Of a stretch of DNA of 64,000 nucleotides, positions 5,368 to 57,010 are shown in pieces. Every line of letters starts with the position of its first letter. Within the stretch, counting starts at the first letter, position 1. The notes beneath the pieces were generated by a model. It searched no databases. It was not told the origin of the DNA and saw only the letters and a program-made list of their open reading frames with translations. The DNA comes from Mobula hypostoma. Its lineage: Eukaryota. Both the position numbers and the translations under genes were made by a program. The DNA lies in contig NC_086097.1 of the NCBI RefSeq assembly GCF_963921235.1, forward strand, positions 620,001-684,000. The letters run 5' to 3'.

Positions 5368-7052
5368 CTAACACAGTGAGAAAAGACATCACGACCAAAT
5401 GAGGGAATATCAACAGAGGATGAAGCTGAAACCCGATAGGCAGCACTATATTGTATGTAAATTGTTCGTCCCACCCTCAGCTGCTTCTGCTAATGCTGGC
5501 AGTATAGACTGTCACTCTCACGATCTCCCACTAAAGTGGAAAATGAGTCACACATGAAACCATCAAATTTAGAAAACTTTGCTAAGGTTCCCTGTCAAGA
5601 TGAAACCTGTGGAAATTGGATGGACAACAGACTTCACCCTGTATCCAAGGGTCTAAAGAACATTCTAATTGGTCTTAGAAGGGTCAGTTGCAATTTGTTA
5701 CAGTTTTAATGTTGCTGTGATTTTCTACTTTGAGGCTCACAGAGCCTCTTGGACTAGTCTTTAATAACCAGTTAATTGTACTAATCTTGGCAAAAGGTGA
5801 GGGAGTCAGTGATAGAATTTGTGAGTGTCGTCATGATGCAGCAGTTAAAGGAAATGGGGCTGAGGAATGCATTTGTGGGAATGAGATGAAATTGGGAAAA
5901 TAAGTGGCAAGGGAAAGGAAAGACAGTGGAATGAGAAGACAGGAGAGGAAAGGGCCAGAACATGCTGGAGTGGCAAAAAGAGGAAGTAGTGGAAGGATAG
6001 AGAAAGAAGGAGGGAGTGGCAATGAGGCAGAGTGACTCCAGACCCTGACCACCTCCTATTTCAGGGGCAAAGTGTAGGTTTATGGAGACAGGGTAACGTA
6101 GCATGGAAACAGGCCCTTCTACCCAATGTCAATGTGTCCAAGATGCCTAACTGATCTAATTTCATCTTGCTATATATGGCCCATATCCCTCTAAATCTTT
6201 CAATCCATGTACCCCTCCAATGTCTTTTAAGCATTGTAATTGTCTATCCCGCTGTTATAAAGCTAATTTTGGTGACGTATACAAATTTACTGATCATGCC
6301 ACACGTACCCTTATCCAAATCATTTATGTAAATGATGAACCACGGTGAAGCCTAAAACCAGATAACGAGAACATAATTAAATAACATTATACTTCTTCGT
6401 TTATTTATTGAGAAAAATGATCCAATATTACAAGTATTTGTTGGAAAAAATATGCGAGGTTCTGGGGTTACGCCTTCTACAAAAGATATTTGGAGTCAGG
6501 TGTTCCAGTCAATGAGATAAAATTGGAAGTGTGGGTTGCAGAGGTGCTCTGCCCTATGAAAAAAAGACACACAAAGTCAGGTTACTGACAGAGTCTGATC
6601 TTCTCAAGAAAGATCTGTTTTTGTGTACCATGCCTCAATCAAAACAACTTTCAGCAAACCTCAGAAGAATTGCATGATGCTGGGAAAGGCTACAAAAGCA
6701 TTTCTAAAGACCCGAGTGTTCATCACTCCACAGTGAGAGAAATTGTCAACAAATGGAGGAAACTCAGTACTGTTGCTACTCCCCTTAGGAATGGGCATCC
6801 TGCAAAGATCAAAGATCCAAGTGCTATGGAACTATGATGTTGTGGCCATTACAGAGACTTGGATGGCTCTGGTGCAGGAATGGTTACTTCGAGTGCCAGG
6901 CTTTAGATGTTTCAGAAAGGACAGGGAGGGAGGCAAAAGAGGTGGGAGTGTGGCACTGTTGATCAGAGATAGTGTCATGGCCATAGAAAAGGAGAAGGAC
7001 ATGGAGGGATTGTCTACGGAGTCTCCGTGGGTGGAAGTTAGGAACAGGAAGG

Positions 7053-8114: not shown

Positions 8115-10185
8115 GGGTCAATAACTATACTGGGTGTTTTAAATAGACCACTAAATATTAACAGGGACATCGAGGAACAGATAGGGTGATAGATTTTGGA
8201 AAGGTGTAATAATAACAGGGTTGTCGTGGTGAGAGATTTTAATTTCTCAAATATTGATTGGCATCTCCCTAGAGTGAGGGGTTTGTTAGGGTGGAGTTTG
8301 TTAGGTGTGTTCAAGAAGGTTTTTTGACACAATATGTAGATAGGCCTACAAGAGGAGAGGCTGTACTTGGTCTGGTATTGGGAAATGAACCTGATCAGTT
8401 GTCAGATCTCTCAGTGGGACAGCATTTTGGAGATAGTGATCACAAATCTATCTCCTTTACCATAGTATTGGAGAGGGACAGGAACAGACAAGTTAGGAAA
8501 GTGTTTAATTGGAGTAATGGGAAATATGAGGCTATCAGGCAGGAACTTGGAAGCAAAAATTGGAAACAGATGTTCTCAGGGAAATGTACGGAAGAAATGT
8601 GGCAAATGTTCAGGGGATATTTGCGTGGAGTTCTGCATAGGTACGTTCCAATGAGAAAGGAAAAGGATGGTAGGGTGCAGGAACCATGGTGTACAAAGGC
8701 TGTTGTAAATCTAGTCAAGAAGAAAAGAAGAGCTTACGAAAAGTTGAAAAAGCTAGGTAATGATAGAAAGCTAGAAGGTTATAAGGCTAACAGGAATGAG
8801 CTTAAGAAAGAAATTAGGAGAACCAGAAAAGGCCATGAGAAGACCTTGGTGGACAGGATTAAGCAAAACCCAAGGCATTCTACAAGTATGTGAAGAGCAA
8901 AAGGATAAGATGTGAGAAAATAAGACCAATCAAGTGTGACAATGGAAAAGTGTGTATGGAACCAGAGGAAATAGCAGAGGTACTTAATGAGTACTTTGAT
9001 TCAGTATTCACTACAGAAAAGGATCTTGGTGATTGTAGAGATGACTTACAACGGACTGAAAAGCTTGAGCATGTAGATATTAAGAAAGAGGATGTGCAGG
9101 AGCTTTTGGAAAGCATCAAATTGTTTATGTCACCAGGACAGGACAAGATGTACCCCAGGGACTGGACAAGATGTACCCCAGGCTACTGTGGGAGGCGAAG
9201 GAGGAGATTGCTGAGCCTCTGACGATGACCTTTGCATCATCAATGGGGACAGGAGAGGTTCCGGAGGATTGGAGGGTTGCGGATGTTGTTCCATTAATCA
9301 AGAAAGGGAGTAGAGATAGTCTTACTTCAGTGGTTGGTAAGTTGAGAGGCAGGATTTATGAATATTTGGAGAGATATAATATGATTAGGAATAGTCAGCA
9401 TGGCTTTGTGAAAGGCAGGTCATGTCTCACAAGCCTGATTGAATTTTTTAAGGATGTGACTGAACACATTGATGTTGGTAGAGCAGTAGATGTAGTGTAT
9501 ATGGATTTCAGCAAGGCATTTGACAAGGTACAACATGCAAGGCTTATTGAGAAAGTAAGGAGACATAGGATCGAAGGAGAAATTGCTTTGCGAATCCAGA
9601 ACTAGATTGCCCACAGATGGCAAAGAGTGGTTGTAGACAGGTCATATTCTGCATGGAGGTCGGTCACCAGTGGTGTGCCTCAGGGATCTGTTCTGGGACC
9701 CCTACTCTTTGTGATTTTTATAAATGACCTGGATGAAGAGGTGGAGGGATGGGTTAGTAAGTTTCCTGATGACACAAAGGTTGGGGTTGTTGTGGATAGT
9801 GTGGAGGGCTGTCAGAGGTTATAGCGGGACATTGACAGGATGCAAAACTGGGCCAAGAAATGGCAAATGGAGTTCAACCCATATAAGTGTGAGGTGGTTC
9901 ATTTTGGTAGGTGAAATATGATGGCAGAATATAGTATTAATGGTAAGACTCTTGGCAGTGTGGAGGATCAGAGGGATCTTGGGGTCTGAGTCCATTGGAC
10001 ACTCAAAGCTGCTGCGCAGGTTGACTCTGTGGTTAAGAAGGAATACAGTGCATTGGCCTTCATCAATCGTGGGATTCAGTTTAGGAGCCGAGAGGTAATG
10101 TTGCAGCTATATAGGACCCTGGTCACACCCCACTTCGATTACTGTGCTCAATTCTGGTCGCCTCACTACAGGAAGGATGTGGAAG

Positions 10186-13100
10186 AGAGAGTGCCAGTGC
10201 TACAAGACAATGATGGTAAGAATTGGAGGAGATGGCAGTTGAATGCGTGGCTGAGGAGTTGGTGCAGGGAGCAGGGTTTTAGATTTTTGGATCATTGGGA
10301 TCTCTTCTGGGGAAGGTGGGACCTGTACAGATTGGATGGGTTGCACCTGAACTCGAGGGGGAGCAATATCCTTGAAGGTAGGTTTGCTAGCATGGTTCGG
10401 GAGGGTTTAAACTAATTTGCAAGGGGGATGGGACCCAGAGCAACAGAGCAGTGAAAGAAGTGCATGGAGTAAAACCAGATCTAACATAAAGAGAGGCTTT
10501 GAGGAAAGAGAAGCAGAATAAACGGTGTAAAGACAGTAAGGTAGAAGGGCTGAAATGTGTGTACCTCAATACAAGAAGCATCAGGAAAAAAGGTGATGAA
10601 CTGAGAGCTTGGATACATACATGGAATTATCATGTAGTGGCCATTACAGAGACTTGGCTGGCAGCAGGGCAGGAATGGATTCTCAATATTCCTGGATTTC
10701 AGTGCTTTAAAAGGGATAGAGAGGGTGAAAAAAGGGGAGAAGGGGTGACATTACTGGCCAGGGATACTATTACAGCTACAGAAAGGGTGGGTAATGTAGC
10801 AGAATCCTCTTTTGAGTCAGTATGATGGAAGTCAGGAACAGGAAGGGAGCAGTTACTCTACTGGGGGTATTCTATAGGCCCCCTGGTAGCAGCAGAGATA
10901 CAGAGGAGCAGATTGGGAGGCAGATTTTGGAAAGGTGCAAAAATAACAGTGTCGTTATCATGGGTGACTTTAACATCCCTAATATTGATTGGCACCTGAT
11001 TAGTTCCAAGGGTTTAGATGGGGCAGTTTGTTAAGTGTGTTCAGGACAGATTCCTGTCACAGTATGTGGACAGGCCAACTAGAGACAATGCCAAACTAGA
11101 TCTAGTACTAGGTAATGAACCAGGTCAGGTCACAGATCTCTCAGTGGGTGAGCATCTGGGGCACAGTGACCACCGCTCCCTGGCCTTTAGCATTATCATG
11201 GCAAAGGATAGAATCAGAGAGGACAGGAAAATTTTTAATTGGGGAAGGGCAAATTATGAGGCTGTAAGACTAGAACTTGTGGGTGTGAATTGGGATGATG
11301 TTTTTGCAGGGAAATGTACTATGGACATGTGGTCGATGTTTAGTGATCTCCTGCAGGATACTAGGGACAAATTTGTCCCGGTGAGGAAGATAAAGAATGG
11401 TACGGTGAAGGAACCATGGGTGACAAGTGAGGCGGAAAATCTAGTCAGGTGGAAGAAGGCAGCATACATGAGGTTTAGGAAGCAAGGATCAGATGGGTCT
11501 ATTGAGGAATATAGGGAAGCAAGAAAGGAGCTTAAGAAGGGGCTGAGGAGAGCAAGAAGGGGGCATGAAAAGGCTTTGGCGAGTAGGGTAAAGGAAAACC
11601 CCAAAAGGCATTCTTCAATCATGTGAAGAAAAAAAGGATGACAGGAGTGAAGTAGGACCGATTAGAGATAAAGGTGAGAAGATGTGCCTGGAGGCTGTGG
11701 AAGTGAGCGAGGTCCTCAATGAATACTTCTCTTCAGTGTTCACCAATGAGAGGGAACTTGATGATGGTGAGGACAATATAAGTGAGGTTAATGTTCTGGA
11801 GCATGTTGATATTCAGGGAGAGGAGGTATTGGACTTATCCGTCCTAATCTATTTTAACAAGTCCCCGGGGCCTGATGGAATATTCCCCAGGCTACTCCAC
11901 GAGGCGAGGGAAGAGATTGCTGAGCCTCTGGTCAGGATCTTTATGTCCTTGTTGTCCACGGGAACGGTACTGGAGGATTAGAGGGAGGCGAATGTTGTTC
12001 CCTTGTTCAAAAAAGGTAGCAGGGATAGTCCAGGTAATTATAGACCAGTGAGCCATACGTCTGTGGTGGGAAAGCTGTTGGAAAAGATTCTTAGAGGTAG
12101 GATCTCTGGGCATTTAGAGAATCATGGTCTGATCAGGGACAGTCAGCATGGCTTTGTGAAGGGCAGATCATGTTTAACAAGCCTCAGAGTTCTTTGAGGA
12201 GGTGACCAGGCAAATCATGAGGGTAGTGCAGTGGATGTGATCTATATGGATTTTAGTAAGGCATTTTACAAGGTTCCACACGGTAGGCTTATTCAGAAAG
12301 TCAGAAGGCATAAGATCCAGTGAAGTTTGGCCAGGTGGATTCAGAATTGGCTTGCCTGCAGAAGGCAGAGGGTCGTGGTGGAGGGGGTACATTTGGATTG
12401 GAGGATTGTGACTAGTGGTGTCCCACAAGGATCTGTTCTGGGACCTATACTTTTCGTGATTTTTATTAACGACCTAGATGTGGGGGTAGAAGGGTGGGTT
12501 GGCAAGTTTGCAGACCACACAAAGGTTGGTGGTGTTGTAGATACTGTAGAGGATTGTCAAAGATTGCAGAGAGACATTGATAGGATGCAGAAGTGGGCTG
12601 AGAAGTGGCAGATGGAATTCAACCCGGAGAAGTGTGAGGTGGTACACATTGGAAGGACAAACTCCAAGGCAGAGTACAAAGTAAATGGCAGGATACTTGG
12701 TAGTGTGGAGGAGCAGAGGGATCTGGGGGTACATGTCCACAGATCCCTGAAAGTTGCCTCACACGTGGATAGGGTAGCTAAGAAAGCTTATGGGGTGTTA
12801 GCTTTCATAAGTTGAGAGATAGAGTTTAAGAGTCACGATGTAATGATGCAGCTCTATAAAACTCTGGTTAGGCCACACTTGGAGTACTGTGTCCAGTTCT
12901 GGTCGCCTCACTATAGGAAGGATGTGGAAGCATTTGAAAGGGTACAGAGGAGATTGACCAGGATGCTGCCTGGTTTAGACGGTATGCATTATGATCAGAG
13001 ATTAAGGGAGCTAGGGCTTTACTCTTTGGAGAGAAGGAGGATGACAGGAGACATGATAGAGGTGTACAAGATAATAAGAGGAATAGATAGAGTGGATAGC

Positions 13101-14862: not shown

Positions 14863-17800
14863 CAATAAGTACTCCATTTTGAGCACTGTTAGAGGGGACG
14901 ACATACAGTAGCTGAGCCTCTGGCACTGAGTCTGGGCCTGTGGCTCAGGTAAGTAGGGAACTGAGGAGGATGCAAGCAGTAACAGGTGACTCTATAGTCA
15001 GAGGACAGATAGGTGATTCTGTGGATGCAAAATAGGAAACACCCAGGTGCCAGAATTCAAGATGTTTCTGGACACGTGCACAATATCCTGAAAAAGGATG
15101 GTGAGTCGCCAGAAGTTGTGGTACATATTAATATCAATGAGATAGGAAGAAAAAGGGAGGAAGTACTGAAAAAAGAATGCAGTGAATTAGGAAGGAAGCT
15201 GAGAATCAGGACCTCAAAGGTAGTAATCTCAAGACTGCTGCCTATGCCATGCCACAGTGAGGGTAGGAATAGAATGAGATGGCAGATAAATGCGTGGCTG
15301 AAAAATTGGAGCAGGGGACAGGGATTCAGATTTCTGGATAATCGGGAGGTCATCTGGGGCAGGTGGGACCTGTACATAAAGGATGGGTTGTAATTGAAAC
15401 CAAGGTGGACCAATTTTCTTGTGGGCAGACTTAGTAGAGCTGTTGGGAGTGGTTTAATCTAATATGGCAGGGGATAAGAACCCGTATGATAGAGCTGAGG
15501 ATGAGACAGCAGATTTACAAGCAGATGATGGATGTAACATTAATGTAAGGAAGGTTAAACCAATGATTGTGTACAAATGCAGACAGCTAAATTGTACCAC
15601 AGAGGCAAAATTCAAAAGGGCAAAGAATGCAGGGCTGAAGGTGTTGTATTTAAATGTACGTAGGTTTCAGATTAAAGTGGAACTCGTGGCGCAATTAGAG
15701 GTTGGTCGGTATGACTATGTGGGCATCACTGAGTCGTGGCTGAAAGAAGGCCATAGTTTGGAGCTTAACATCACAGGATATACTTCATCGAAAAGAACAG
15801 CAGGAAGGCATAAACTGTGGTGTGGCTGTGTTGATAAGAGATGAAATTACATTTTTAGAAAGAGGTGACATAGGGTCAGAGAATGTTGAATGTTTGTGGA
15901 TGGAGTTAAGAAATTGCAAGGGTAATAAACCCATTATGGGAATCATATATAGGCCTCAAAATAGTAGCCAAGATTGAGATTGCAAAGGGAGCTGGAAAAG
16001 GCATGTAATAAGGGTAATGACACAATTGTAATGGGGGACTTCAACATGCAAGGGGATTGGGAAAATCAGATTGGTGTTGGATTGCAAGAGAGGGAATTTG
16101 TTGAATGCCTACAAGGTGGCTTTTTAGAGTAGCTTGTGCTTGAGCCAACTAGAGGAAAAGCTATCTTAGATTGGGTGTTGTGTAATAACCCAGACCTTAA
16201 CAGGGGGTTTAACATAAAGGAGCCCTTAGGAGACAGTAATCATAATATGATTGAATTGATACTGCAATTTGAGCAGGATCGCAATGGAATACAGGGACTC
16301 ACAAAGGGATGAGATAGGAGCTTGCTCAGGTGGATTGGACGAGGATACTGTCAGGGATGACGGCACAGCAGAGATGGCTGAAGTTTCTGGGAATGTCCCA
16401 CAGAGGAAGAAGTTCTCAAATGGTAGGGGTAGGGAACTGTGGCTGACACAAGATGTTAAGGACTGCATAAAAGTCAAGGAAAGGGCATAAAAGGTAGCAA
16501 AAGTGAGTGGGAAGGTTTTAAAATCCAACAAACAGCAACTAAGGAGGCTATAAGAAGGGAAAAGATGAAATATGAGGGCAGACTAGCCAATAATATAAAG
16601 CAGGATATCAAAAGTTTTTTTCAGTTATCTCAAGAGTGAAAAGGAGGTGAGAGTTGATATTAGACCACTGGAAAATGATGCTGGTGAGGTAGAAATGGAG
16701 GACAAAGAAATGGCATGTAAACTTAATGGGTAACTTGCATCTGTTTCACTGTGGAAGACACTAGCAGTGTGCCAGAGGTCTGTGAGTGTCCGGGAGCAGG
16801 GAAGCCTGCCACTGTTATTACAAAGGAAAAAGTGCTAGGCAAACTCAAAGATCTTAAGGAGGATAAGTCACCTGGACCAGATGGACTACATCCCAGAGTC
16901 CTCAGAGTGGTTCCTGAAGAGGTAACAGATGCATTGGTTGTGATCTCTCAAGAATCACTTGATTCTGACATGGTCCCAGATGACAGGAAGATTGCAAATA
17001 TCACACGACTCTTTAAGGGAGGAAGGCAAAAGAAAGGAAAGTATTAGCCAGTCAGCCTAGCCTCAGTGGGTGAGAAAAGTGTTGGAGTCTATTATCAAGG
17101 ATGAGATTTCAAGGTACTTGGAGACCAATGATAAAATAAGTCAAGGTCAGCATGGATTTTGTAAAGGGAAATTTTGCCTGACAAATCTGTGAAGAATTCT
17201 TTAAGGAAGTAACAAGCAGGATGGACAAAGGAGAGGCAGCGGATGTCATTTACTTGGATTTTCAGAAGGCGTTTGATAAGGTGCCCACATGACGCTGCTT
17301 AACAAGATAAAATCCTATCTTAGATACTGGCATGGATAGAGGATTGGCTGACAGGCAGGAGGCAGTGAGTGGGAATAAAAGAGGCCATTTCTGGTTGGCT
17401 GTTGGTGACTAGTGGTGTTCCTCAGGGGTCAGTATTGGGACCGCTACTTTTCACATTGTCAATGATTTAGATAATGGAATTGATGGCTTTGAGGCAAAGT
17501 TTACAGATAATACTTAGATAGGTGGAGGGGTAGGTAGTGCTAAGGAAGCAATGCAATTGCAGCAGGACTTAGACAAATTGGCAGAATGGGCAAAAAAGTG
17601 GCAGATGGGAAACAGTGTTGGGAAATGTATGATAAAGTATATTGATAAAAGGAAAAATAGTGCAGACTATTATCTAAGTGAGGAGAAGGTGCAAACATCA
17701 GAAGTGCAGAGGTACTTAGGAGTCCTTGTGCGAGTCAAGAAGGTTAATTTACAGGTTAAGTCTGTGGTAAAGAAGGCAAATACATTGTTGGCATTTATTT

Positions 17801-20158: not shown

Positions 20159-21560
20159 ATACGATTAACATGGTCATCCCTTTCTTATTCTTTAGTTCCA
20201 TCCATAACACCTCAGAGGAAGAGCTCTGCACTTTGTCTTGACTTAATGCTGCTGTAACATTTTCCTTGACTCGTAATGCCACCCCTCCTTCGTTATTCCC
20301 TCCCGCTCTACTGCATCTAAAACAATGGAAACCCAGTTCATTAAGCTTCCAGTCCTGCCTCTCCTGCAACCAAGTCTCACCAATGGCTACAATGGCATTA
20401 TTCCATGTAGGCTTAAAAACATATTTCTCCACAAGCACTCCACTATCTGCTTTAGCACTCTGGTTCCCATCTCCTTGCAACTTTGGTCTAACACCCCCCA
20501 CCCCCAAAACAGCATTAGCAAATCTTCCTGCTAAGATATTAGTTCCCTTCCAGTTCAGGTGCAAACCATCTCTTCTATACAGGTCCCAGCTTCCCTGGAT
20601 GGGAGCCGAATGATCCACAAATCTGAAGACCTCCCTTCTGCATCAACTCCTTAGTCACATGTTAAACTGTATGATCTTCCTATTTCTGGCCTCACCAGCA
20701 CATAGCATGGGTAGCAATCCCGAGATCATAACCCTGGTGGTCCTGTCCTTTAACTTAGAACCTAATTCCCTGAACTCACTTGGCAGGACCACATTACCTA
20801 TCCTACCTATGTCATTGGTACCAACATGGACTACGACCTCTGGCTACTCACTCTCCCATGTAAGAATCCTGTGGACTCAATGAAGATGTCCCTGACCCTG
20901 GCATCTGGGATGCAACAAGCTGTCTGGGAATCTCGTTCTTATCCACGTCAACACACACAAAATGCTGCAGGAACTCAGCAGGCCAGGCAGCATCTATGGA
21001 AAAGAGTAAACAGTTGACGTTTCAGGTCGAGACCCTTCTTCAGGATACCTCCTGTTTCCCTTGTGCATAGAACCTCCTTTCTGTTCCTCTAACCAATGAA
21101 TCCCCTATCACTACAGCTCACCTCTTCTCCCCCTCCCCTTCCCTTCTGAGCCACAGAGCCAGACTCAGGGCCAGAGGCCTGCATGCTGTGGCTTCTCCCA
21201 GTTAGGTCCCTCAAAAGTATCCAATGCGGTATATTTATTATTGAGGAGCCTAGCCACAGAGTACTGTGCACTGGCCGCCTATTCCCTTTCCCTCTTCCGT
21301 CAGTCACCCAGGTACCTGCCTCCTGCAACTTAGGGGTGACTACATCCCTGTAGCTCCTATCTATCACCTCCAAATTTTCCTGTAGGAAACAAAGGTCATT
21401 GTGCTACAGCACCAGGTATTTAACACGGTCCCTAAGGAGCTGTAGTACGGTGTACTGGTAGATATAGTTATCAGGGAGACTGGAGGTCTGCCAAAGTTCC
21501 CACATCCCACACGAGGCACATACCACTAACTCTGGATCCATTCTCAGCACATTAGAAATG
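20159..21560 (-). mobile_element. Highly decayed CR1 (ORF1 esterase/APE region)
   Basis: Minus-strand ORF 20145-20618 includes WDLYRRDGLHLNWKGTNILAGRFA and IVAIGETWL...GGVAL. Confidence 0.75.
21011..21045 (-). ncRNA. Minimal hammerhead motif in a short Penelope-derived insertion (about 20949-21045)
   Basis: Minus strand TC CTGAAGA AGGGTCTCGACCT GAAAC GTC AACTG. The 5' arm of helix I is truncated. Confidence 0.6.
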
Positions 21561-39800: not shown

Positions 39801-41687
39801 TAAGGCCATGTCCTCTTGTATTGAGCAGTGGTGCCCTGGGGAAGAGGCACTGGCTATCCACTCTATCTATTCCTCTTATTATCTTGTACACCTCTATCAT
39901 GTCCCCAAAGAGTAAAGCCCTAGCTCCCTTAATCTCTGATCATAATGCATACTCTCTAAACCAGGCAGCATCCTGGTAAATCTCCTCTGTACCCTTTCCA
40001 ATGCTTCCACATCCTTCCTATAGTGAGGCGACCAGAACTGGACACAGTACTCCAAGTGTGGCCTAACCAGAGTTTTATAGAGCTGCATCAATACATCACG
40101 ACTCTTAAACTCTATCCCTCGACTTATGAAAGCTAACACCCCATAAGCTTTCTTAACTACCCTATCTACCGGTGAGGCAACTTTCAGGGATCTGTGGACA
40201 TGTACCCCCAGATCCCTCTGCTCCTCCACACTACCAATATCCTGCCATTTACTTTGTACTCTGCCTTGGAGTTTGTCCTTCCAAAGTGTACCACCTCACA
40301 TTTCTCCGGGTTGAACTCCATCTGCCACTTCTCAGCCCACTTCAGCATCCTATCAATGTCTCTCTGCAATCTTTGACAATCCTCTACAGTATCTACAACA
40401 CCATCAACCTTTGTGTCATCTGCAAACTTGCCAACCCACCCCTTTACCCCACATCCAGGTGGTTAATAAAAATCACGAAAAGTAGTGGTCCCAGAACAGA
40501 TCCTTGTGGGATACCACTAGGCACAATCCTCCAATCTGAATGTACTCCCTCCACCACGACCTTCTGCCTTCTGCAGGCAAGCCAATTCTGAATCCACCTG
40601 GCCAAACTTCCCTGGATCCCATGCCTTCTGACTTTCTGAATAAGCCTACCGTGTGGAACCTTGTCAAATGCCTTACTAAAATCCATATAGATCACATCCA
40701 CTGCACTACCCTCATGTATACGCATGGTCACCTGCTCAATGAACTCTATCAGGCTTGTTAGACACGATTTGCTCTTTCCCAAAGCCATGCTGACTGTCCC
40801 TGATCAGACCATGATTCTCTAAATGCCTATAGATCCTATCTCTAAGAATCTTTTCCAACAGCTTTCCCAACACAGACGTAAGGCTCACTGGTCTACAATT
40901 ACCCGGACTATCCCTACTACCTTTTTTGAACAAGGGGACAACATTCACCTCCCTCCAATCCTCTGGTACCATGCCCGTGGACAACCAGGACATAAAGATT
41001 CTAGCCAGAGGCTCAGCAATCTCTTCCCTCGTCTCATGGAGCAGCCTGGGGAATATTCCATCAGGCCTCACTGCTCTCTAACCAGCAATGCCACCCCACC
41101 TCCTTTCCTTTCATGTCTATCCCTCCTGAATATTGAATATCCCTGAATGTTGAGCTCCCATCCTTGGTCACCCTGGAGCCATGTCTCTGTGATCCCAACT
41201 ATATCATATTCATTAATAACTATCTGCACATTCAATTCATCCACCTTGTTACGAATGCTCCTTGCATTGACACACAAAGACTTCAGGCTCGCTTTTACAA
41301 CACTCTTAGCCCTTATACAATTATGTTGAAAAGTGGCCCTTTTTGATTTTTACCCTGGATTTGCCGGCCTGCCACTTTTACTTTTCACCTTACTACTGTT
41401 TGCTTCTACCCTCATTTTACACCCCTCTGTCTCTCTGCACTTGTTCCCAACCCCCTGCCACATTAGTTTAGATCCTCCTGAACAACAATAGCAAACGCTC
41501 CCCCTAGGACATTGGTTCCAGTCCAGCCCAGGTGCAGACCATCCTGTTTGTACCAGTCCCACCTCCTCCAGGACTGGTTCCAATGCCCCAGAAATTTGAA
41601 TCCCTCCCCGTTGCATCATTTTTCAAGCCACATATTCATCTGACATATCCTCCTATTTCTACTCTGACTAGCACGTGGCACGTGGCA
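36878..41687 (-). mobile_element. CR1 LINE (ORF1 end to 3' tail; 36878-39553 + 41075-41687), same subfamily as 22933-24370
   Basis: ORFs 41068-41277 (CVNARSIRNK), 39319-39507, 38284-38637, 37575-38027 (FADDTK) and 36972-37277. Confidence 0.9.
39554..41074 (-). mobile_element. 5'-truncated CR1 (copy C, subfamily of copies A/B) nested in CR1
   Basis: Colinear with 2010-3540. The host gttaatctcctct|ctaaccagcaatg resumes across it. Confidence 0.9.
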
Positions 41688-45800: not shown

Positions 45801-46520
45801 CTCGGTTCCCACCCCCCAACAATTCTAGTTTAAACTCTCCCCAGTAGCCTTAGCAAACCTCCCCGCCAGGATATTGGTCCCCCTGGGATTCAAGTGCAAC
45901 CAGTCCTTTTAGTACTGGTCACACCTGCCCCAAAAGAGGTCCCAATGATCCAGAAATCTGAATCCCTGCCCCCTGCCCCCTGCCCCCTGCCCCAATCCCT
46001 CAGCCACACATTTATCCTCCACCTCATTCTATTCCTATTCTCACTGTTGTGTGGCACAGGCAGTAATCCCAAGATTACTACCTTTGCAGTCCTGCTTCTC
46101 AACTTCCTTCCTAACTCCCTGTCATCTTTTTTCAGGACCTCTTTCCTTTTTCTGCCTATATCATTGGTACCAATATATATCACGACCTCTGGCTGTTCTC
46201 CCTCCCACCGCAGGATATCTTGGACATAATCTGAAACATCCCGGACCCTGGCACCTGGGAGGCAAACTACCACCCAAGTTTCTTTCCTCTGTCCACAGAA
46301 TTGCCTGTCTGACCCCTAAGTATAGAGTCCCCTATCACTCTTCCTTTCTCTACCCTTCTGAGCCACAGGGCTGGACTCTGTGCCAGAGGCGCAGCCACTG
46401 TTGCTTCCCCCAGGTAGGCAGCTCCCCCCCCAACAGTACTCAAACAGGAGTACTTATTGTCAAGGGGTACAGCCACAGGGGTACTCTATAGTACCTGACT
46501 CTTCTAATTCCCCCTCCTGA
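42886..46520 (-). mobile_element. Near-full CR1 (ORF1 SGNH esterase + ORF2), decayed
   Basis: ORF1 VIGDS, CLPGARVRDVS, VVIYIGTNDIG; APE 45243-45704; RT 43006-44663; tail at about 42890. Confidence 0.9.
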
Positions 46521-48330
46521 CACTGGGGCCTGTGTCAGCACCCTTTTCAGAGATTGGAACGCCTCCTCACATTGAGCATCCCACCTTGATCCAAAAGGCT
46601 CCGCCAGGTTCAAGTATCCGCTTGCCTCCTGGCCTCAGTTTCCCTTCCTTTTCTTCCCCACAGGTGGATAGCCACACAACAGGTGGTTGAATGGGTGACT
46701 CATTTTAGTGTATCCTTTCACGAATCGCTGGTAATACCCACAGAACCCCAAAAACGAGCGCAGGGCGCTCACCTTCTGGGGTCTCGGCCAGGTGGTCACT
46801 GCGGCTATCTTAGGCGGATCAATAGCCACTCCATTTCATGAAATTAAGTGTCCGACATAGCTGACCGACAGCTTACAGAAATGGCATTTATCCAGGGAAA
46901 GTTTCAACTCTTCCTCCTTCAGCCGACTCAGCACCTTCAGCAGCCGCTCCTCATATTCCAAACACTATCAGGTCATCCAGATACACCAACACCTCCAGCA
47001 GGTTCATATCCCCCACTGTCCTCCCCATGAGCTGCTGGAAGGTGGCTGGGGCCCCCGATATGCCTTGGGGCATTCGTTCGAAATGAAAAAATCCCGGGGG
47101 CCAGATAAAGGTCGTCTTCTCTTTATCGGCCTCACTCATCGGAATCTGGTAATACCCACTCCGCAAATCCAATACACTAAACCACTGCGCACCACTTAAA
47201 CAGGCCAATGCATCTTCCACCCTCGGGACTGTATACTAGTTGGGGACAGTGCACCGGTTCAGGGTCCTATAGTTCACGCACATGCGTACCTTCCCATTTT
47301 CTTCCTAGCCACTACTATGGAGCACCGCATAGGGGCTCCAGGACTCTTCGATAATCCCTGCATCCCTCAACTGCCGCAAGTGCAGCCGCACATCTTCCAC
47401 ATCTGCTGGGCCAACCGCTGCGACCTTTCTCTAAACGGGGTGTCATTTGTCACCTGGATAGTGTGATGAGTGCTCTTGGAACAGCCCACATCAAACTCGC
47501 CCTGAGAAAAGACATCCCCTAGCTTCAGCGGCTTCTCCACCAGCCTGCTCTTATAATCCGGCGGTACAGGGGAGTCCTTAAAATTAAAGGCCTCCTCGGT
47601 CAGCCGCCCCCTGTTCTCCAATAGTTTTCCTCCAGTGGGCCTCACGGGGGCGCTAGACATCACCGTCACCAGGAACAAGTGTGCGAGGGGCATCCTGTGC
47701 TTAAAGGTGATCTCCCTTTCCGTTGTGTTCCTTACAATCACCCCCATCCGCCGTGCCTGTACAGCTGAGGGCGTCTGCAATTCAGGTCTCACCAGTACCC
47801 CAGCCGGGAACCGGGACTCCCCCTCAAGGTCTTCCGGGGTGTCTACTAACAGGGCCTCGCCCGCCAGTACTCCAGGAGACCTGGGGGTCCCCATCACTAC
47901 TGCCACCTCCCCTGGCTGTATCACTTTAGGCCTCACCTGAGTACACCACACCGTCCCTCGTTTGAACTCAGGATCCAGCCACGTAGGGTCACCCGCTTCT
48001 TCATACACCGCTTGAAACACTGGGTGTACTGAGAGGGTCTCCAGAAAGTTCTCCCCCGCCTTCTCCTTACAGGCTCCCAGGAGCCGTCGCACAAGAGGGG
48101 AGTTAGTCCCCACCAGCAGGGCAGCGCCACCAGTTTCCACTGGGTCCGGACAAATCAACACCAACGTCTCAAGGGCTTCCGACACTCCCACATCACCCTC
48201 TGAGAATTCCAATCTCACTGACAGGTACCCATTGTACGGGTAATCACCGTCACTTATGCCCCAAATCTCCAGTGCATTAAACGGGGTTACTGGCAAATGC
48301 TTCAGATATTTGTTGTAGAACGACCAGTAC

Positions 48331-48541: not shown

Positions 48542-50446
48542 ATCCGGTGTCAAGGATGGCTCTTGCAAAGATTCCCTATATCCGTAGGGACATGCTGGAA
48601 CGGGGTCCCACCAGTCCATCCAGAATAAGGGCTTGGGCTTTCGGGGGTCCCATGGCTGATTTCCGGGAACGTGTTCCTCCTGAGACTCCAGTCCGTTCCC
48701 TCATTGAGTCTCTCCTAAGTTTCCGGACACCTCTCCCTTCTTAGTGTCCCGGGGGCTTTCCCTCCGCGGGGCACCTTGTCTCTCACAATCCCTCTGAAAG
48801 TGACCCGCTTCTCCACAGCTGTAGCACACCCCCGGCCACTCACATTCCCCCGAGAAATGCCCCTCTTTCCCACAGTTATAGCACACGCTATCCGCCACCC
48901 CTTTCCTCCCAGGACGCTCCCCACTCCCAGCCCACGGTGTGGGCCGTCCCCCAAAGGGGGTACTCTCCCTGTCCATCCCCTCAAGCGGGGGTCCCTTCCC
49001 CCCAGAACCCCTTGGGTTTCTTGGTTCTCAACCCAGCTACCACCTCCTGAACCGCTGAGGATCGTCCCCGGTGGCCCAAGCCCCTTTTCCGGCCCAAAGC
49101 GCTCTTCTCCTCCCGCACCTCTCTAATCAGCTGCCCGAATGATGGAGGGGGGTTCCTTTTATAGGACTGCCGGAGACTCCAAGCCACCTTGTCCTCCTCC
49201 AGGGAACCACTAAATATCTGACTCATCCTCAACCTCGCCACTTCGTCCACCTTCACTACCCCTCAGCACCACAACCCAGTAAGCATTCTCTCCAGCCGAA
49301 AAATGTATTCTGAGAGTTTATCCCCTCTTCCCTGCCCCATGTGGTGAAACTGCGCTAAAAGCTCCCAGGGATCTCCTGACATTCCAAACGTTCCCTCCAA
49401 AGCTTCCAGATACTCCGCCAGGGAAGCCGAGGGCCGTTCCGCCTTCAGCTCCCGGACTACACCAGCCGCCCCACCCCTCAAACTTTCCACCAATCGCTGT
49501 CTCTTTTCCTCATCTGAGCCTGGCCACGCCTCTAACAACTGGGACGTATTTTCAATCCATATCTCATAGTCGTCCTCCCCTTCCGGGGTAGGTTTGGCTC
49601 CTGAGAAAATTCTCAGCTTTGGGCAGGGCCCCTCGGCCCTTCTCACCAGGGAGGTAATAGCGGCTTCTAACTCGGAGGTCTCACCTCTAGCTGGGGGACG
49701 GGGCCTGGCCAAGCCTTCCCACTCTGACCCTCCACCACTGGCTACTGGCACCTCCCCTGGGGTCTCATCTAGCTCCTCCTCTGGTATCTCCTCACTTCCT
49801 TCCTCTGGGAAGGTGTGGAGGCCCCATGGCACCCCCCTCCCCCAGACACCGACCATCACTGGCAGTTCCAACGTCATGATGTCAGCACTCGTACGAACCA
49901 ACACCCAGCTAGATTCCACTTCTTTACCGCATCTTCTAGCTACCAGTTCTACCTGCCCTATACCTTTGATCAAACTCAACCCTTGCACGAGTACATCTCC
50001 CGAAATGTGGAAATCCACCCCACTTAACACGCACGCATGATTCACCGGTACGTCCTCTAACTCATACCAGCTTACAATCTTATCTCGATCCATCTCCACA
50101 CTACTTAACGTGGCGATTTATACAGCTTTACCGAAAATTCAAACCTGGACGTCTGCCCCAACAAATGTAATGCTCAGCTCTATTGGCTCCTATTTATCTA
50201 GGGGAAACCCCATCACCCGCCCACCTTCTCTCCCGGTTACGTCGGTTGCTGTACAACTGCCACCTGATTCGGCTTCAAACATCAATCATCAGCCAGCACT
50301 CAATGTACGTTTTACCAATTACACTTTACAGATATTACTCAGTCGATGAGATTAATGGAGGTACAATACAAAAAGGAATGGAACAGGCGCCAGACTTATC
50401 AAAGTTCAATTTCTTCATGCACACGTTGGAGCTCGGACCTTCTTTC

Positions 50447-52575: not shown

Positions 52576-54815
52576 GTATATTGTAAATAGCTGCAGTCCC
52601 AGCACCAAGATTTGCGGTACCCCACTAGTCACTGCCTGCAATTCTGAAAGGGACCCGTTAATCCCTACTCTTTGTTTCCTGTCTGCCAACCAATTTTCTA
52701 TCCATGTCAGTACCCTACCCCCAATACAACGTGCTCTAAGTTTGCCCACTAATCTCCTATGTGGGACCTTATCAAAGACTTTCTGAAAGTCCAGGTACAC
52801 TACATCCACTGGCTCTCCCTTGTCCATTTTCATAGTTACATCCTCAAAAAATTCCAGAATGTCAAGCATGATTTCCCCTTCGTAAATCCATGCTGACTCG
52901 GACCGATCCTGTTACTGCTATCCAAATGTGCCACTATTTCATCCTTTATAATTGACTCCAGCATCTTCCCCACCACTGATGTCAAGCTAACTGGTCTATA
53001 ATTCTCTGTTTTCTCTCCCCCTCCTTTCTTAAAAAGTCGGATAACATTAGCTACCCTCCAGTCCTCAGTAACTTATCCTGAATCTATAGAACATTGGAAA
53101 ATGATTACCAATGCGTTCACAATTCCAAGAGCCACTTCCTTAAGTACCCTGGGGTGCAGACCATCAGGCCCTGGGGATTTATCAGCCTTCAGTCCCATCA
53201 GTCTATCCAACACCATTTTCTGCCTAATGTGAATCCCCTTCAGTTCCTCTGTTACCCTAGGTCATCCGGCCACTATTCCGTCTGGGAGATTGTTTGCGTC
53301 TTCCCTAGTGAAGACAGATCCAAAGTACCTGTTCAGCTCGTCTGCCATTTCCTTGTTCCCCAGAATAAATTCACCCGTTTCTGTCTTCAAGGGCCCAACT
53401 TTGGTCTTAACTAATTTTTTCCTCTTCACATACCTAAAGAAGCTTTTACTATCCTCCTTTATATTCTTGGCTAGCTTGTCTTTGTATCTCATCTTTTCTC
53501 CCCGTATTGCCTTTTTAGTTATCTTCTGTTGCTTTTTAAAAGTTTCTCAATCCTCTGGCTTCCTGCTCATCTTTGCTATGTTATACTTCTCTTTTATTTT
53601 TATACTGTCCTTGACTTCCCTTATCAGCCACAGTCACCCCTTACGCCCCTTAGAATCTTTCTTCCTCTTTGGAATGAACTGATCCTGCACTTTCTGTATT
53701 ATTCCCAGAAATACCTGCCATTGTTGTTCCACTGTCATCCTTTCTAGGGTATCTTTCCAGTCAACTTTGGCCAGCTCCTCCCTCGTGGGTCCATAGTCCC
53801 CTTTGTTCAACTGTAACACTGACACTTCCGATTTTCCCTTCTCCCTCTCCAATTGTAGATCAAAACTTATCATATTATGGTCACTACCTCCTAATGGCTC
53901 CTTTACCTTGAGTTCCCTTATCAAATCTGGTTCATTACACAACACTAAATCCAGAATTGCCTTCTCCTTGGTAGGTTCCAGTACAAGCTGCTCTAAGAAT
54001 CCATATCAGAGGCACTCCACAAACTCCCTTTCTAGGGGTCCAGTACCAACCTGATTTTCCCAGTCTACCTGCTTGTTGAAATCCCCCATAACAACCATAG
54101 CATTACCTTTGTGACATGCCAATTTTAACTCTTGATTCAACTTGCACCCTACATCCAGGCTACTGTTTGGGGGCCTGTAGATAACTCCCATTAGGGTCTT
54201 TTTGCCCTTACAATTTCTCCGTTCTATCCATACTGACTCTACATCTCCTGATTCTATGTCACCCCTCGCAAGGGACTGAATTTAATTCCTCACCAACAGA
54301 GTCACCCCACCCCCTCTGCCCACCTGTCTGTCCTTTCGATAGGACGTATACCCTTGAATATTCACTTTGCAGCCCTGGTCCTCTTGCAGCCATGTCTCTG
54401 TTATTCCCACAACATCATACTTGTCAATTTCCAACTGAGCCTCAAGCTCATCCACTTTATTTCTTATACTTCGTGCATTCATATATAATACTTTTAATCC
54501 ATTACTCCCCTCACCTTTCACATCGATTCCTATTGCACTTGGCCATACTCTCCGATCCCTTCCTGAGCTTTCTGCCCCATTAATTCTGTTGTCTTTCTTA
54601 ACTTACTTTATTCTCTCTTTCCCTTTAACTCCATCCTTATATTTCCTCTCCTCCCCACCACTATTTAGTTTAAACACACCAGTGTAGCAGTGGCAAACCT
54701 GCCTGCCAGAATGCTGGTCCCCCGCCTGTTAAGGTGCAACCCGTCCCTTTTGTATAATTCATCCTTACCCCAAAAAAGATCCCAGTGGTCTCAGAATCTA
54801 AATCCCTGCTTCCCG
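52576..54815 (-). mobile_element. CR1 LINE (ORF1 C-terminus, APE, RT N-half)
   Basis: GTSILAGRFATATLVCLN*; LKVLYMNARSIRNK; GVIYRPPN; SDHNMI; LDFQKVFDKVPH. Confidence 0.88.
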
Positions 54816-55659: not shown

Positions 55660-57010
55660 TTAATGTGGGGTTGGTGCTGCTGGTATGGAAATAGTGCTGG
55701 TTAGAGTGGGGTTAGTGGTGGTTTGGTGACGATGCTGGTTAGAACGGGGTTAGTGGTGGTTTGGTGACGATGCTGGTTAGAGTGGGGTTAGTGGTGGTTT
55801 GGTGACGATGCTGGTTAGAGTGGGGTTAGGTGTGGTTTGGTGACAATGCTGATTAGAGTGGGGTTAGTGGTGGTTTGGTGACGATGCTGGTTAGAGTGGG
55901 GCTAGTGGTGGTTTGGTGACGATGCTGGTTAGAGTGGGGTTAGTGGTGGTTTGGTGACGATGCTGGTTAGAGTGGGGCTAGTGGTGGTTTGGTGACGATG
56001 CTGGTTAGAGTGGGGTTAGTGGTGGTTTGGTGACGATGCTGGTTAGAGTGGGGTTAGGTGTGGTTTGGTGACGATGCTGATTAGAGTGGGGTTAGTAGTG
56101 GTTTGGTGACGATGCTGGTTAGAATGGGGTTAGTGGTGGTTTGGTGACGATGCTGGTTAGAGTGGGGTTAGTGGTGGTTTGGTGACGATGCTGGTTAGAG
56201 TGGGGTTAGGTGTGGTTTGGTGACGATGCTGATTAGAGTGGGGTTAGTGGTGGTTTGGTGACGATGCTGGTTAGAGTGGGGCTAGTGGTGGTTTGGTGAC
56301 GATGCTGGTTAGAGTGGGGTTAGTGGTGGTTTGGTGATGATGCTGGTTAGAGTGGTTAGTGGTGGTTTGGTGATGATGCTGATTAGAGTGGGGTTGGAGT
56401 TGTTTTGGAGCTGGTTTGGAAACAGTGCTGGTTACAGTGGGTTTGGTGCTGGTTTGGAGATGGTGCTGGTTAGATTTGGGTTGGAGGCAATTTGGAGACA
56501 GTGCTGGCTAGAGCGGGGTTAGCAGTGGTTTGGTGATGATGCTGGTTAGAGTGGGGTTGGAGCCCGTTTGGGAATGGAGCTAGTTAGAGTGGAGTTGGAG
56601 CCAGTTTGGACATGATACTGGATAGGGTGGTGTTAGTGCTGCTGGTTTCGAGATGGTGCTGGCTAGAGTGGGGTTAGTGGTGTCTTGCGATGATGCTAGT
56701 GAGAGTGGTTGGAGCCGGTTTGGAGATGGTGCTAGTTAAACTGGGGTCGGTGCTGCTAGTTTTGAGATGGAGCCGGTTATAGCAAGGTTGGGGGTGCTGC
56801 TGGTTAGTGGGGTTGATACCGCTGGTAAGAGTGGGGTTGGAGCCGGGTTTGTAGTGGTGCTGGTTACACTTGGGTTGGAGCAGGCTTGAGAATGGTGCTG
56901 GTTAGAGTAGTGTTAGTGCTGGTTAGAGTGGGTTTGGAGCTGGTTTAGTGATGGTGCTGGATGGAGTGGGTTTGGTGCAGGTTTGGGGATTGTGCTGGTG
57001 TTGGAGGCAG
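55660..57010. repeat. G/T-rich minisatellite, 38-bp unit; homogeneous at about 55720-56390, diverged on both flanks
   Basis: Unit GATGCTGGTTAGAGTGGGGTTAGTGGTGGTTTGGTGAC. Confidence 0.93.

Follow-up and report, generated by a model that had tools for sequence, protein, structure and literature searches.

A Candidate −1 Frameshift Site at the ORF1/ORF2 Junction of CR1-Like LINEs in Mobula hypostoma

Introduction

How is the second open reading frame (ORF2) of a CR1-like long interspersed element (LINE) translated when it lies in the −1 frame relative to the first (ORF1) and brings no start codon of its own? The question is raised by a stretch of 64,000 nucleotides (nt) from Mobula hypostoma (NCBI RefSeq assembly GCF_963921235.1, contig NC_086097.1, positions 620,001 to 684,000 of the forward strand; the window, whose first letter is position 1 throughout), which is crowded with CR1-like LINE copies on both strands. 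According to a passage of PMC13343379, CR1 dominates among the retrotransposons of most vertebrates, and passages of two papers on LINEs call the mechanism of ORF2 translation from a bicistronic RNA unclear (PMC3708506) or “an interesting and important question” (PMC3894237). An original prediction, made from the letters of the window alone, held that ORF1 of these elements ends in a slippery heptamer, U_UUA_AAC, at which some ribosomes would shift by −1 into ORF2.

Anatomy of the Junctions

The junction at position 10406 (J1) consists of the following parts.

10191..10412, + strand: C-terminal part of ORF1, a GDSL/SGNH esterase tail (Pfam match) ending in ...REGLN
10406..10412, + strand: heptamer T_TTA_AAC, candidate −1 slip site, read GGT TTA AAC in the ORF1 frame
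10413..10415, + strand: ORF1 stop TAA, immediately 3′ of the heptamer (GGT TTA AAC TAA at 10404-10415)
10416..10440, + strand: G-rich stretch 3′ of the stop, I-(C/W)-(K/Q)-G-D-G-T in the −1 frame (alignment, contig depth)
10406..10657, + strand: beginning of ORF2 in the −1 frame, a Met-free linker followed by the endonuclease (APE) domain

The 74 residues ahead of the site match the Pfam family Lipase_GDSL_2 (E = 7.4e-8), and the J1 ORF1 tail shares 81% identity with the C-terminus of P0017, a 172-residue ORF1 protein terminating in ...DGLN. The reverse transcriptase (RT) reading frames of the window match RVT_1 (E = 2.2e-31 and 3.3e-25), and relatives of ORF2 bear PF03372, PF14529, and PF00078. 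As judged by these domain matches, ORF1 at these junctions is a GDSL/SGNH esterase and ORF2 an APE-RT protein; the CR1-clade name rests on this domain layout and on named relatives. In the −1 frame of J1 the APE motifs LKCVYLN and ITETW begin at 10550 and 10643, respectively, and the sole stop is a TAA at 10487-10489 that is private to the copy. A sibling of this copy lies at 567-1102. The J1 copy itself begins within its ORF1 (10150-10200) and sits inside the RT tail of an older CR1; a single reading frame spans the older RT and the ORF1 tail of the J1 copy.

Searching the window by tblastn with 151 ORF1 tails (see below) retrieved six ORF1/ORF2 junctions, three with an exact NNT TTA AAC followed by a stop, two with one mismatch, and one decayed. 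All six copies are 5′-truncated and contain stops or insertions/deletions. The junctions besides J1 are:

15453..15459, + strand: J2, TTTAATC, one mismatch (GGT TTA ATC TAA at 15451-15462), stop at 15460-15462
45828..45834, − strand: J3, exact heptamer (AGT TTA AAC TAG at 45825-45836), stop TAG at 45825-45827
54668..54674, − strand: J4, exact heptamer (TGT TTA AAC TAA at 54665-54676), stop TAA at 54665-54667
41461..41472, − strand: J5, TCTAAAC, not slippery (GAT CTA AAC TAA at 41463-41474), stop TAA at 41463-41465
~20460-20505, − strand: J6, decayed, heptamer and stop lost, APE N-terminus largely deleted

The five sites quoted in the original prediction are all found at the coordinates and in the phase given there, with the heptamer in the ORF1 frame and ORF2 in the −1 phase. 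The prediction had further counted three copies whose −1 frame runs into the APE domain past a single stop. This applies to the copies at 10406, 54668, and 41466 and does not extend to the one at 45828 (J3), where the −1 frame stays open for 48 codons before a private out-of-frame deletion shifts the APE domain into frame 0; the J3-related proteins P0169 and P0173 have linker and APE in one frame. In J4 the first ATG of the −1 frame encodes the Met inside LKVLYMNARS.

The G-run of J2 is one base shorter than that of the other copies, which places the APE domain in the +1 frame, and an ATG in that same frame lies at 15464-15466. Loose-end contigs resembling the J2 subfamily retain the block with five G; a +1-frame ORF2 with its own ATG (15464) was therefore rejected as a family feature. 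The J2 changes look private to the copy, and by the evidence of these contigs its family would likewise be in the −1 phase. In J5, an ATG at 41461-41463, not mentioned in the original prediction, overlaps the stop (TAATG), and ORF2 begins with MWQG... in the −1 frame; a related ORF2 protein, P0011, begins MWQGDGNK. The J6-related protein P0004 begins MQGDGN.

Conservation of the Heptamer and the Stop

Across the whole window TTTAAAC shows no enrichment (11 matches versus 9.4 expected; at least 11 in 33 of 100 shuffles). In the three exact junctions it forms part of an eight-letter palindrome, GTTTAAAC (10405-10412, 45828-45835, and 54668-54675), both strands of which account for six of the 11 matches. 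The non-random feature is thus the position and phase of the heptamer, not its count. Mean pairwise identity among J1-J5 is 0.88 over heptamer and stop, against 0.65 in the ORF1 tail, 0.52 at +10 to +34, and 0.40 at +35 to +120. The third codon positions of the last three residues (x, Leu, Asn) are identical in all five copies at 3/3 positions, compared with 9/34 upstream, and a stop (TAA or TAG) stands at the same place in 5/5 readable junctions. Sequence conservation at the junction exceeds that of its flanks at the nucleotide level, as the original prediction had proposed from codon usage. The lineage with an ATG at the stop, the 41466 type (J5), is also the lineage without the heptamer.

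For the 10406 type, contigs from three organisms were aligned to 10250-10650 at a likeness of at least 80% (n = 12,810, 16,533, and 14,908). Among the 40 alternatives seen of 51 in this region, none at 10400-10419 reaches 10% in any of the three organisms, an invariance that is partly circular inside the block since the contigs were picked by likeness. The majority in all three organisms reads TTTAAAC TAA TTT. In this majority the codon whose first A overlaps the stop is ATT, not ATG, and since no alternative of at least 10% occurs there, this ATT is not a mutated ATG. Neither insertions nor deletions are listed over the J1 region in contigs of the three organisms. At 10487-10489, where the J1 copy has its −1-frame stop, TAC or TAT (Tyr; C or T at 10489) makes up ~100% of the depth in all three, which bears out the earlier claim that this stop is a mutation of the one copy.

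Contig depth is highest over 10404-10431 in all three organisms, and many contigs match only from ~10395 to 10433 or 10440 and then diverge from the window. This pattern marks a block of ~45 nt (~10395-10440) around the stop that is common to subfamilies with different flanks. The G-rich stretch at 10416..10440, in which majority alternatives occur at 10420/10421 only, closes the block.

Phase and Start Codon of ORF2

In the 10406 family, the −1 frame contains no Met from the heptamer to LKCVYLN (10550). As the contig majority shows no AUG here, translation of ORF2 in this family cannot begin at any AUG upstream of the endonuclease. The original prediction had stated the absence of an in-frame AUG for the copies at 10406 and 54668; both J1 and J4 indeed lack a Met in the −1 frame between heptamer and APE, and for 10406 the family majority in three organisms agrees. 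Two independent proteins, P0179 and P0183, also run from the junction into the APE domain without a Met, P0183 lacking the FKL reading and looking decayed. The first Met of the sibling copy (567-1102) is that of ...VVIMGDFN, downstream of the ITETW motif, so that a product started at this AUG would lose the N-terminal part of the endonuclease. An independent contig of 10,972 nt carries the ORF1 protein P0017 together with an ORF2 piece, P0168, that was called from a Val position.

The −1 phase of ORF2 is kept in every family examined. Several families have Mets in the linker. Such Mets, as starts or as contents, are found in P0001, P0003, P0009, P0182 (two in the linker), and P0005-P0008, of which P0005-P0008 are NCBI models, while ENA/Logan proteins may begin with GTG or TTG instead of ATG. 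Their positions differ between families. These Mets weaken the claim of a generally AUG-less ORF2 and leave the 10406 family unaffected.

Two sets of database proteins were considered and set aside. The Pristiophorus models P0014 and P0015 start with MAGGWEP, in which the G-rich stretch is read in another frame, and their N-termini are in a different frame from ORF2 of the 41466 type. The 860-residue barn swallow protein P0201, a candidate ORF1-ORF2 fusion, was rejected because it joins ORF1 to the middle of the APE domain and the junction itself is missing. A complete CR1 ORF2, P0002, is filed under Carnobacterium maltaromaticum, probably because host DNA entered the bacterial assembly.

Relatives of ORF1

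A HMMER search with the 74-residue ORF1 tail yielded 610 relatives at E <= 1e-3, and 151 tails, namely the best 150 of these and P0018, were inspected. A Leu-Asn end is found in 46 of the 151, the next commonest ending occurring four times, and its bearers include electric ray, deep-sea eel, poison frog, painted turtle, and barn swallow; the ORF1s of bird, turtle, and frog end in ...ALN, which bears, at the protein level only, on the similar junction in amniote CR1s that the original prediction mentioned. If NNU UUA AAC is conserved, the residue before Leu should have a codon that can end in U. Residues with no such codon (Glu, Lys, Gln, Met, and Trp) precede Leu-Asn in 1 of the 46, compared with a background of 15% in the tails and 33-35% at positions −4 and −5, but positions −6, −7, and −9, as expected of an amphipathic helix, are equally poor in them, and many of the ...RRALN tails are related. 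We regard the scarcity as weak support for the heptamer. The single exception is P0027 of the AUG-bearing 41466 lineage, which ends in ...GEELN, so that the codon ahead of its Leu cannot end in U.

The G that precedes the heptamer at the three exact junctions is not general, as relatives have Ala, Tyr, and His, among others, before Leu-Asn. In the ORF1 relative P0046, ...KTFLN is followed in the same frame by FKL, as if the heptamer had been duplicated in tandem. The turtle “protein shisa-4 isoform X1” (P0062) terminates in the esterase tail of a CR1 ORF1 and is probably a chimeric model. Outside the protein databases, a profile search with close ORF1 alignments found no matching loci in viral contigs or genome contigs, and in metagenome contigs it found one locus, L001, with 26% identity, presumed to be an unrelated lipase.

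The RNA Downstream of the Heptamer

The 100 nt downstream of the heptamer are purine-rich and fold no better than shuffled sequences, with z-scores in the five copies of −0.98, −0.31, +0.52, +0.93, and −1.06; the J4 segment folds at 0 kcal/mol. Instead, a conserved, linear G-rich stretch begins 6-10 nt after the heptamer (10418-10435 and equivalents). In the −1 frame it encodes (W/Q)-Q-G-x-G-N, a motif present in nine further sequences, and most of its Gly codons are GGG. Constraint at the RNA level and at the protein level is inseparable here. A G-quadruplex as stimulator was rejected, as only a weak two-tier quadruplex was predicted, and this in the 41466 copy (J5) alone.

How ORF2 Might Be Translated

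These observations would fit a −1 ribosomal frameshift at NNU UUA AAC as the source of ORF2 protein (ORF2p). ORF1, comprising a coiled coil and the GDSL esterase, ends in x-Leu-Asn encoded by NNU UUA AAC with the stop following at once, and ORF2 (APE and RT) lies in the −1 frame, lacking its own start codon in the 10406 type. With UUA in the P site and AAC in the A site, a few ribosomes would slip back by one base onto UUU and AAA, and continue at CUA in the −1 frame. Their product would be a fusion of ORF1 protein (ORF1p) and ORF2p, ...GLN-LI(W/C)(Q/K)GDG...-APE-RT, while the remaining ribosomes would terminate and release ORF1p, giving a ratio like that of Gag and Gag-Pol. The stimulator might be the conserved G-rich stretch, acting as a linear element bound by a protein or by the ribosome, or as a weak G-quadruplex, rather than a hairpin or pseudoknot. 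A UAAUG overlap of stop and start would have taken its place in at least one sister lineage, that of the 41466 type, after which the heptamer decayed.

Three of the six junctions carry an X_XXY_YYZ heptamer in the correct frame, and the decay of the heptamer precisely in the lineage with an AUG at the stop would favor frameshifting. Several points weigh against this reading. From the UAAUG lineage it is evident that ORF2p can work unfused, and given this lineage, reinitiation in all lineages is the more economical explanation; where it has its UAAUG, the 10406 type has AUU, a near-cognate start codon. Although it lacks the heptamer, the UAAUG lineage still ends ORF1 in Leu-Asn, for which a role at the protein level is thus possible. 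No stable or conserved fold was detected in the 100 nt 3′ of the heptamer in five copies, nor an Rfam match at the junction, and a small hairpin in J1 was discarded because majority alternatives at 10420/10421, like the majority letter at 10442, disrupt it. Besides the linker Mets, the circularity of the contig sample, and the helical periodicity and kinship of the ORF1 tails described above, the nucleotide evidence comes from families of the cartilaginous-fish type only. To our knowledge, a −1 frameshift has not been demonstrated experimentally for any LINE. Of the original interpretation, the heptamer, the phase, the absence of AUG in the 10406 family, and the conservation have held up, and the lack of a stable or conserved downstream structure, the UAAUG sister lineage, and the linker Mets of related families speak against it. 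On this sequence evidence we consider frameshifting plausible, and its chances of being right or wrong appear to us about equal.

Termination-reinitiation at a non-AUG codon is a serious rival. In such a scheme, which resembles that of SART1 and belongs with the calicivirus and influenza B type of coupling, the 40S subunit would stay on the RNA after the ORF1 stop and restart a few bases away in the −1 frame, using AUG in the 41466 type and, in the 10406 type, a near-cognate or other non-AUG codon (AUU), so that ORF2p would be made as a separate protein and the conserved block around the stop would serve as a coupling signal. The TAATG at 41461-41465 and the ORF2 proteins starting with MWQG agree with it, as do the ATT at the equivalent position in the 10406-type majority and the fixed position of the stop in 5/5 readable junctions; passages in the literature describe UAAUG coupling in SART1 and AUG-independent translation of L1 ORF2 (PMC3894237, PMC3708506, PMC5009743). 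J3 and J4, however, have neither AUG nor AUU at the matching place, and no downstream structure of the SART1 kind was found in the five copies. UGGGA occurs 89 and/or 110 nt 5′ of the heptamer in all five copies and could assist coupling as a tethering motif, but it lies within conserved Trp-Asp codons and may be their by-product. Reinitiation also leaves unexplained why the codon before Leu ends in U, why Leu is UUA out of six codons, and why AAC is used over AAU, choices that are conserved in the copies lacking AUG and relaxed in the AUG-bearing lineage. We hold this explanation to be possible, while not expecting it to prove correct.

Less probable still, and in our view unlikely, is that the heptamer merely follows from a conserved esterase end, Leu-Asn, and from the codon usage of an A/G-rich element, with ORF2 reached by internal entry, by leaky scanning to sporadic AUGs in the linker, or by near-cognate initiation further downstream. 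Leu-Asn is indeed retained where the heptamer is lost (J5, P0027), the tail resembles an amphipathic helix with constrained positions, several families have Met codons in the linker, and the heptamer is not enriched window-wide. Yet the linker Mets lie at differing places and are absent from J1, J4, P0179, and P0183, the conserved nucleotide block extends ~25-30 nt past the stop, where the protein is otherwise free, and all families examined retain the −1 phase. That nothing functional is involved, the motif being shared among dead copies by descent alone, has very little to commend it: although the six window copies are 5′-truncated with stops or indels, subfamilies only 65% (ORF1 tail) and 40% (linker) identical still keep the junction, as do tens of thousands of contigs from three organisms, and the Leu-Asn end spans vertebrate classes.

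A broader form of the frameshift proposal may be entertained tentatively, and we rather doubt it: NNU UUA AAC, the stop, and the G-rich stretch could together constitute an ancient recoding signal of esterase-type CR1 elements in jawed vertebrates, which would yield the fusion without a hairpin or pseudoknot and could be switched to UAAUG. The stimulus would then come from the adjacent stop and the linear G-rich element, to which a protein or the ribosome might bind.

A conserved candidate slip site of the most thoroughly studied type at the CR1 junction makes the question of ORF2 translation testable by a simple reporter. If frameshifting is confirmed, CR1 elements would produce a Gag-Pol-like esterase-endonuclease-RT fusion, the efficiency of slippage would set the ratio of ORF1p to ORF2p, and a linear G-rich element could replace a folded stimulator. 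Should the signal be ancient as well, this would be the first vertebrate LINE polymerase known to be expressed by frameshifting.

Other Elements in the Window

The G-over-C skew of the window is strong and changes sign near 34 kb. On the 5′ side of the 54668 CR1 copy lies a tandem array (55695-56708; 26.4 copies of a 38-nt unit, 84% matches), and shorter related arrays extend up to 56999. An open frame of 284 codons at 49266-50117 (− strand) matches the PNMA (Ty3/gypsy gag-like) family with E = 2.3e-28, and the translation of ~46300-47300 (− strand) resembles a gypsy-type pol by eye; together they probably represent a long terminal repeat (LTR) retrotransposon adjoining the 45828 CR1 copy. At 6600-6825 (+ strand) the translation is, again by eye, like the DNA-binding N-terminus of a Tc1/mariner-type transposase, and this stretch directly adjoins a CR1 copy whose truncation point, at 6826, falls within APE.

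Comparison with Known Systems

Our literature search found no description of a slippery site in CR1; older key papers on CR1 and SART1 were outside this search, and an earlier description is possible. The word “frameshift” has no match in the text available from PMC13343379, PMC4120745, PMC3894237, PMC3708506, PMC4316615, PMC3905857, and PMC2881922, and the passages of PMC2734521 on start codon, ORF2, stop codon, and frame (12 of 16 passages) do not discuss the junction. In a large recoding review, the non-LTR elements mentioned are HeT-A, TART, and L1 only, and CR1 is absent (PMC5009743).

The window offers points of comparison with several established cases of recoding. The −1 site between ORF1a and ORF1b of coronaviruses is U_UUA_AAC, and that of arteriviruses is G_UUA_AAC. 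CR1 shares with these viruses the heptamer, its phase, and a polymerase-type ORF in the −1 frame lacking its own start; the viral sites, however, need a pseudoknot 5-7 nt downstream and have no adjacent stop, whereas the CR1 junctions have an adjacent stop and no detected structure. In slip sites of the luteovirus/dianthovirus type the heptamer directly abuts the 0-frame stop, as it does in CR1, and these sites depend on local and long-range RNA structure. With gag-pol of retroviruses and LTR elements, CR1 would have in common the pairing of a plentiful structural or accessory protein with a rare enzyme-bearing fusion, but it has no protease to separate the parts. We know of no LINE that makes an ORF1p-ORF2p fusion.

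Among non-LTR elements, mammalian L1 shows low, AUG-independent expression of ORF2 from a bicistronic RNA according to passages of PMC5009743. Unlike CR1, L1 has a spacer between the ORFs, with neither overlap nor slippery site. TRE5-A and TRE3-A of Dictyostelium are stated to require a −1 frameshift (PMC5911963); they belong to another clade and host, and the passage concerned presents no slip site or evidence for the shift. In the passages available, SART1 of Bombyx is the one LINE whose junction of this kind has been dissected, and its translational coupling at UAAUG needs a downstream structure (PMC3894237, PMC3708506). The CR1 copies at 10406, 45828, and 54668 differ from it in having no AUG at that place and no visible downstream structure. 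The junction at 41461-41465 and the protein P0011, by contrast, resemble SART1 closely, with ORF2 in the −1 frame and its start overlapping the stop, and this UAAUG sister lineage provides a natural comparison of two strategies for expressing ORF2.

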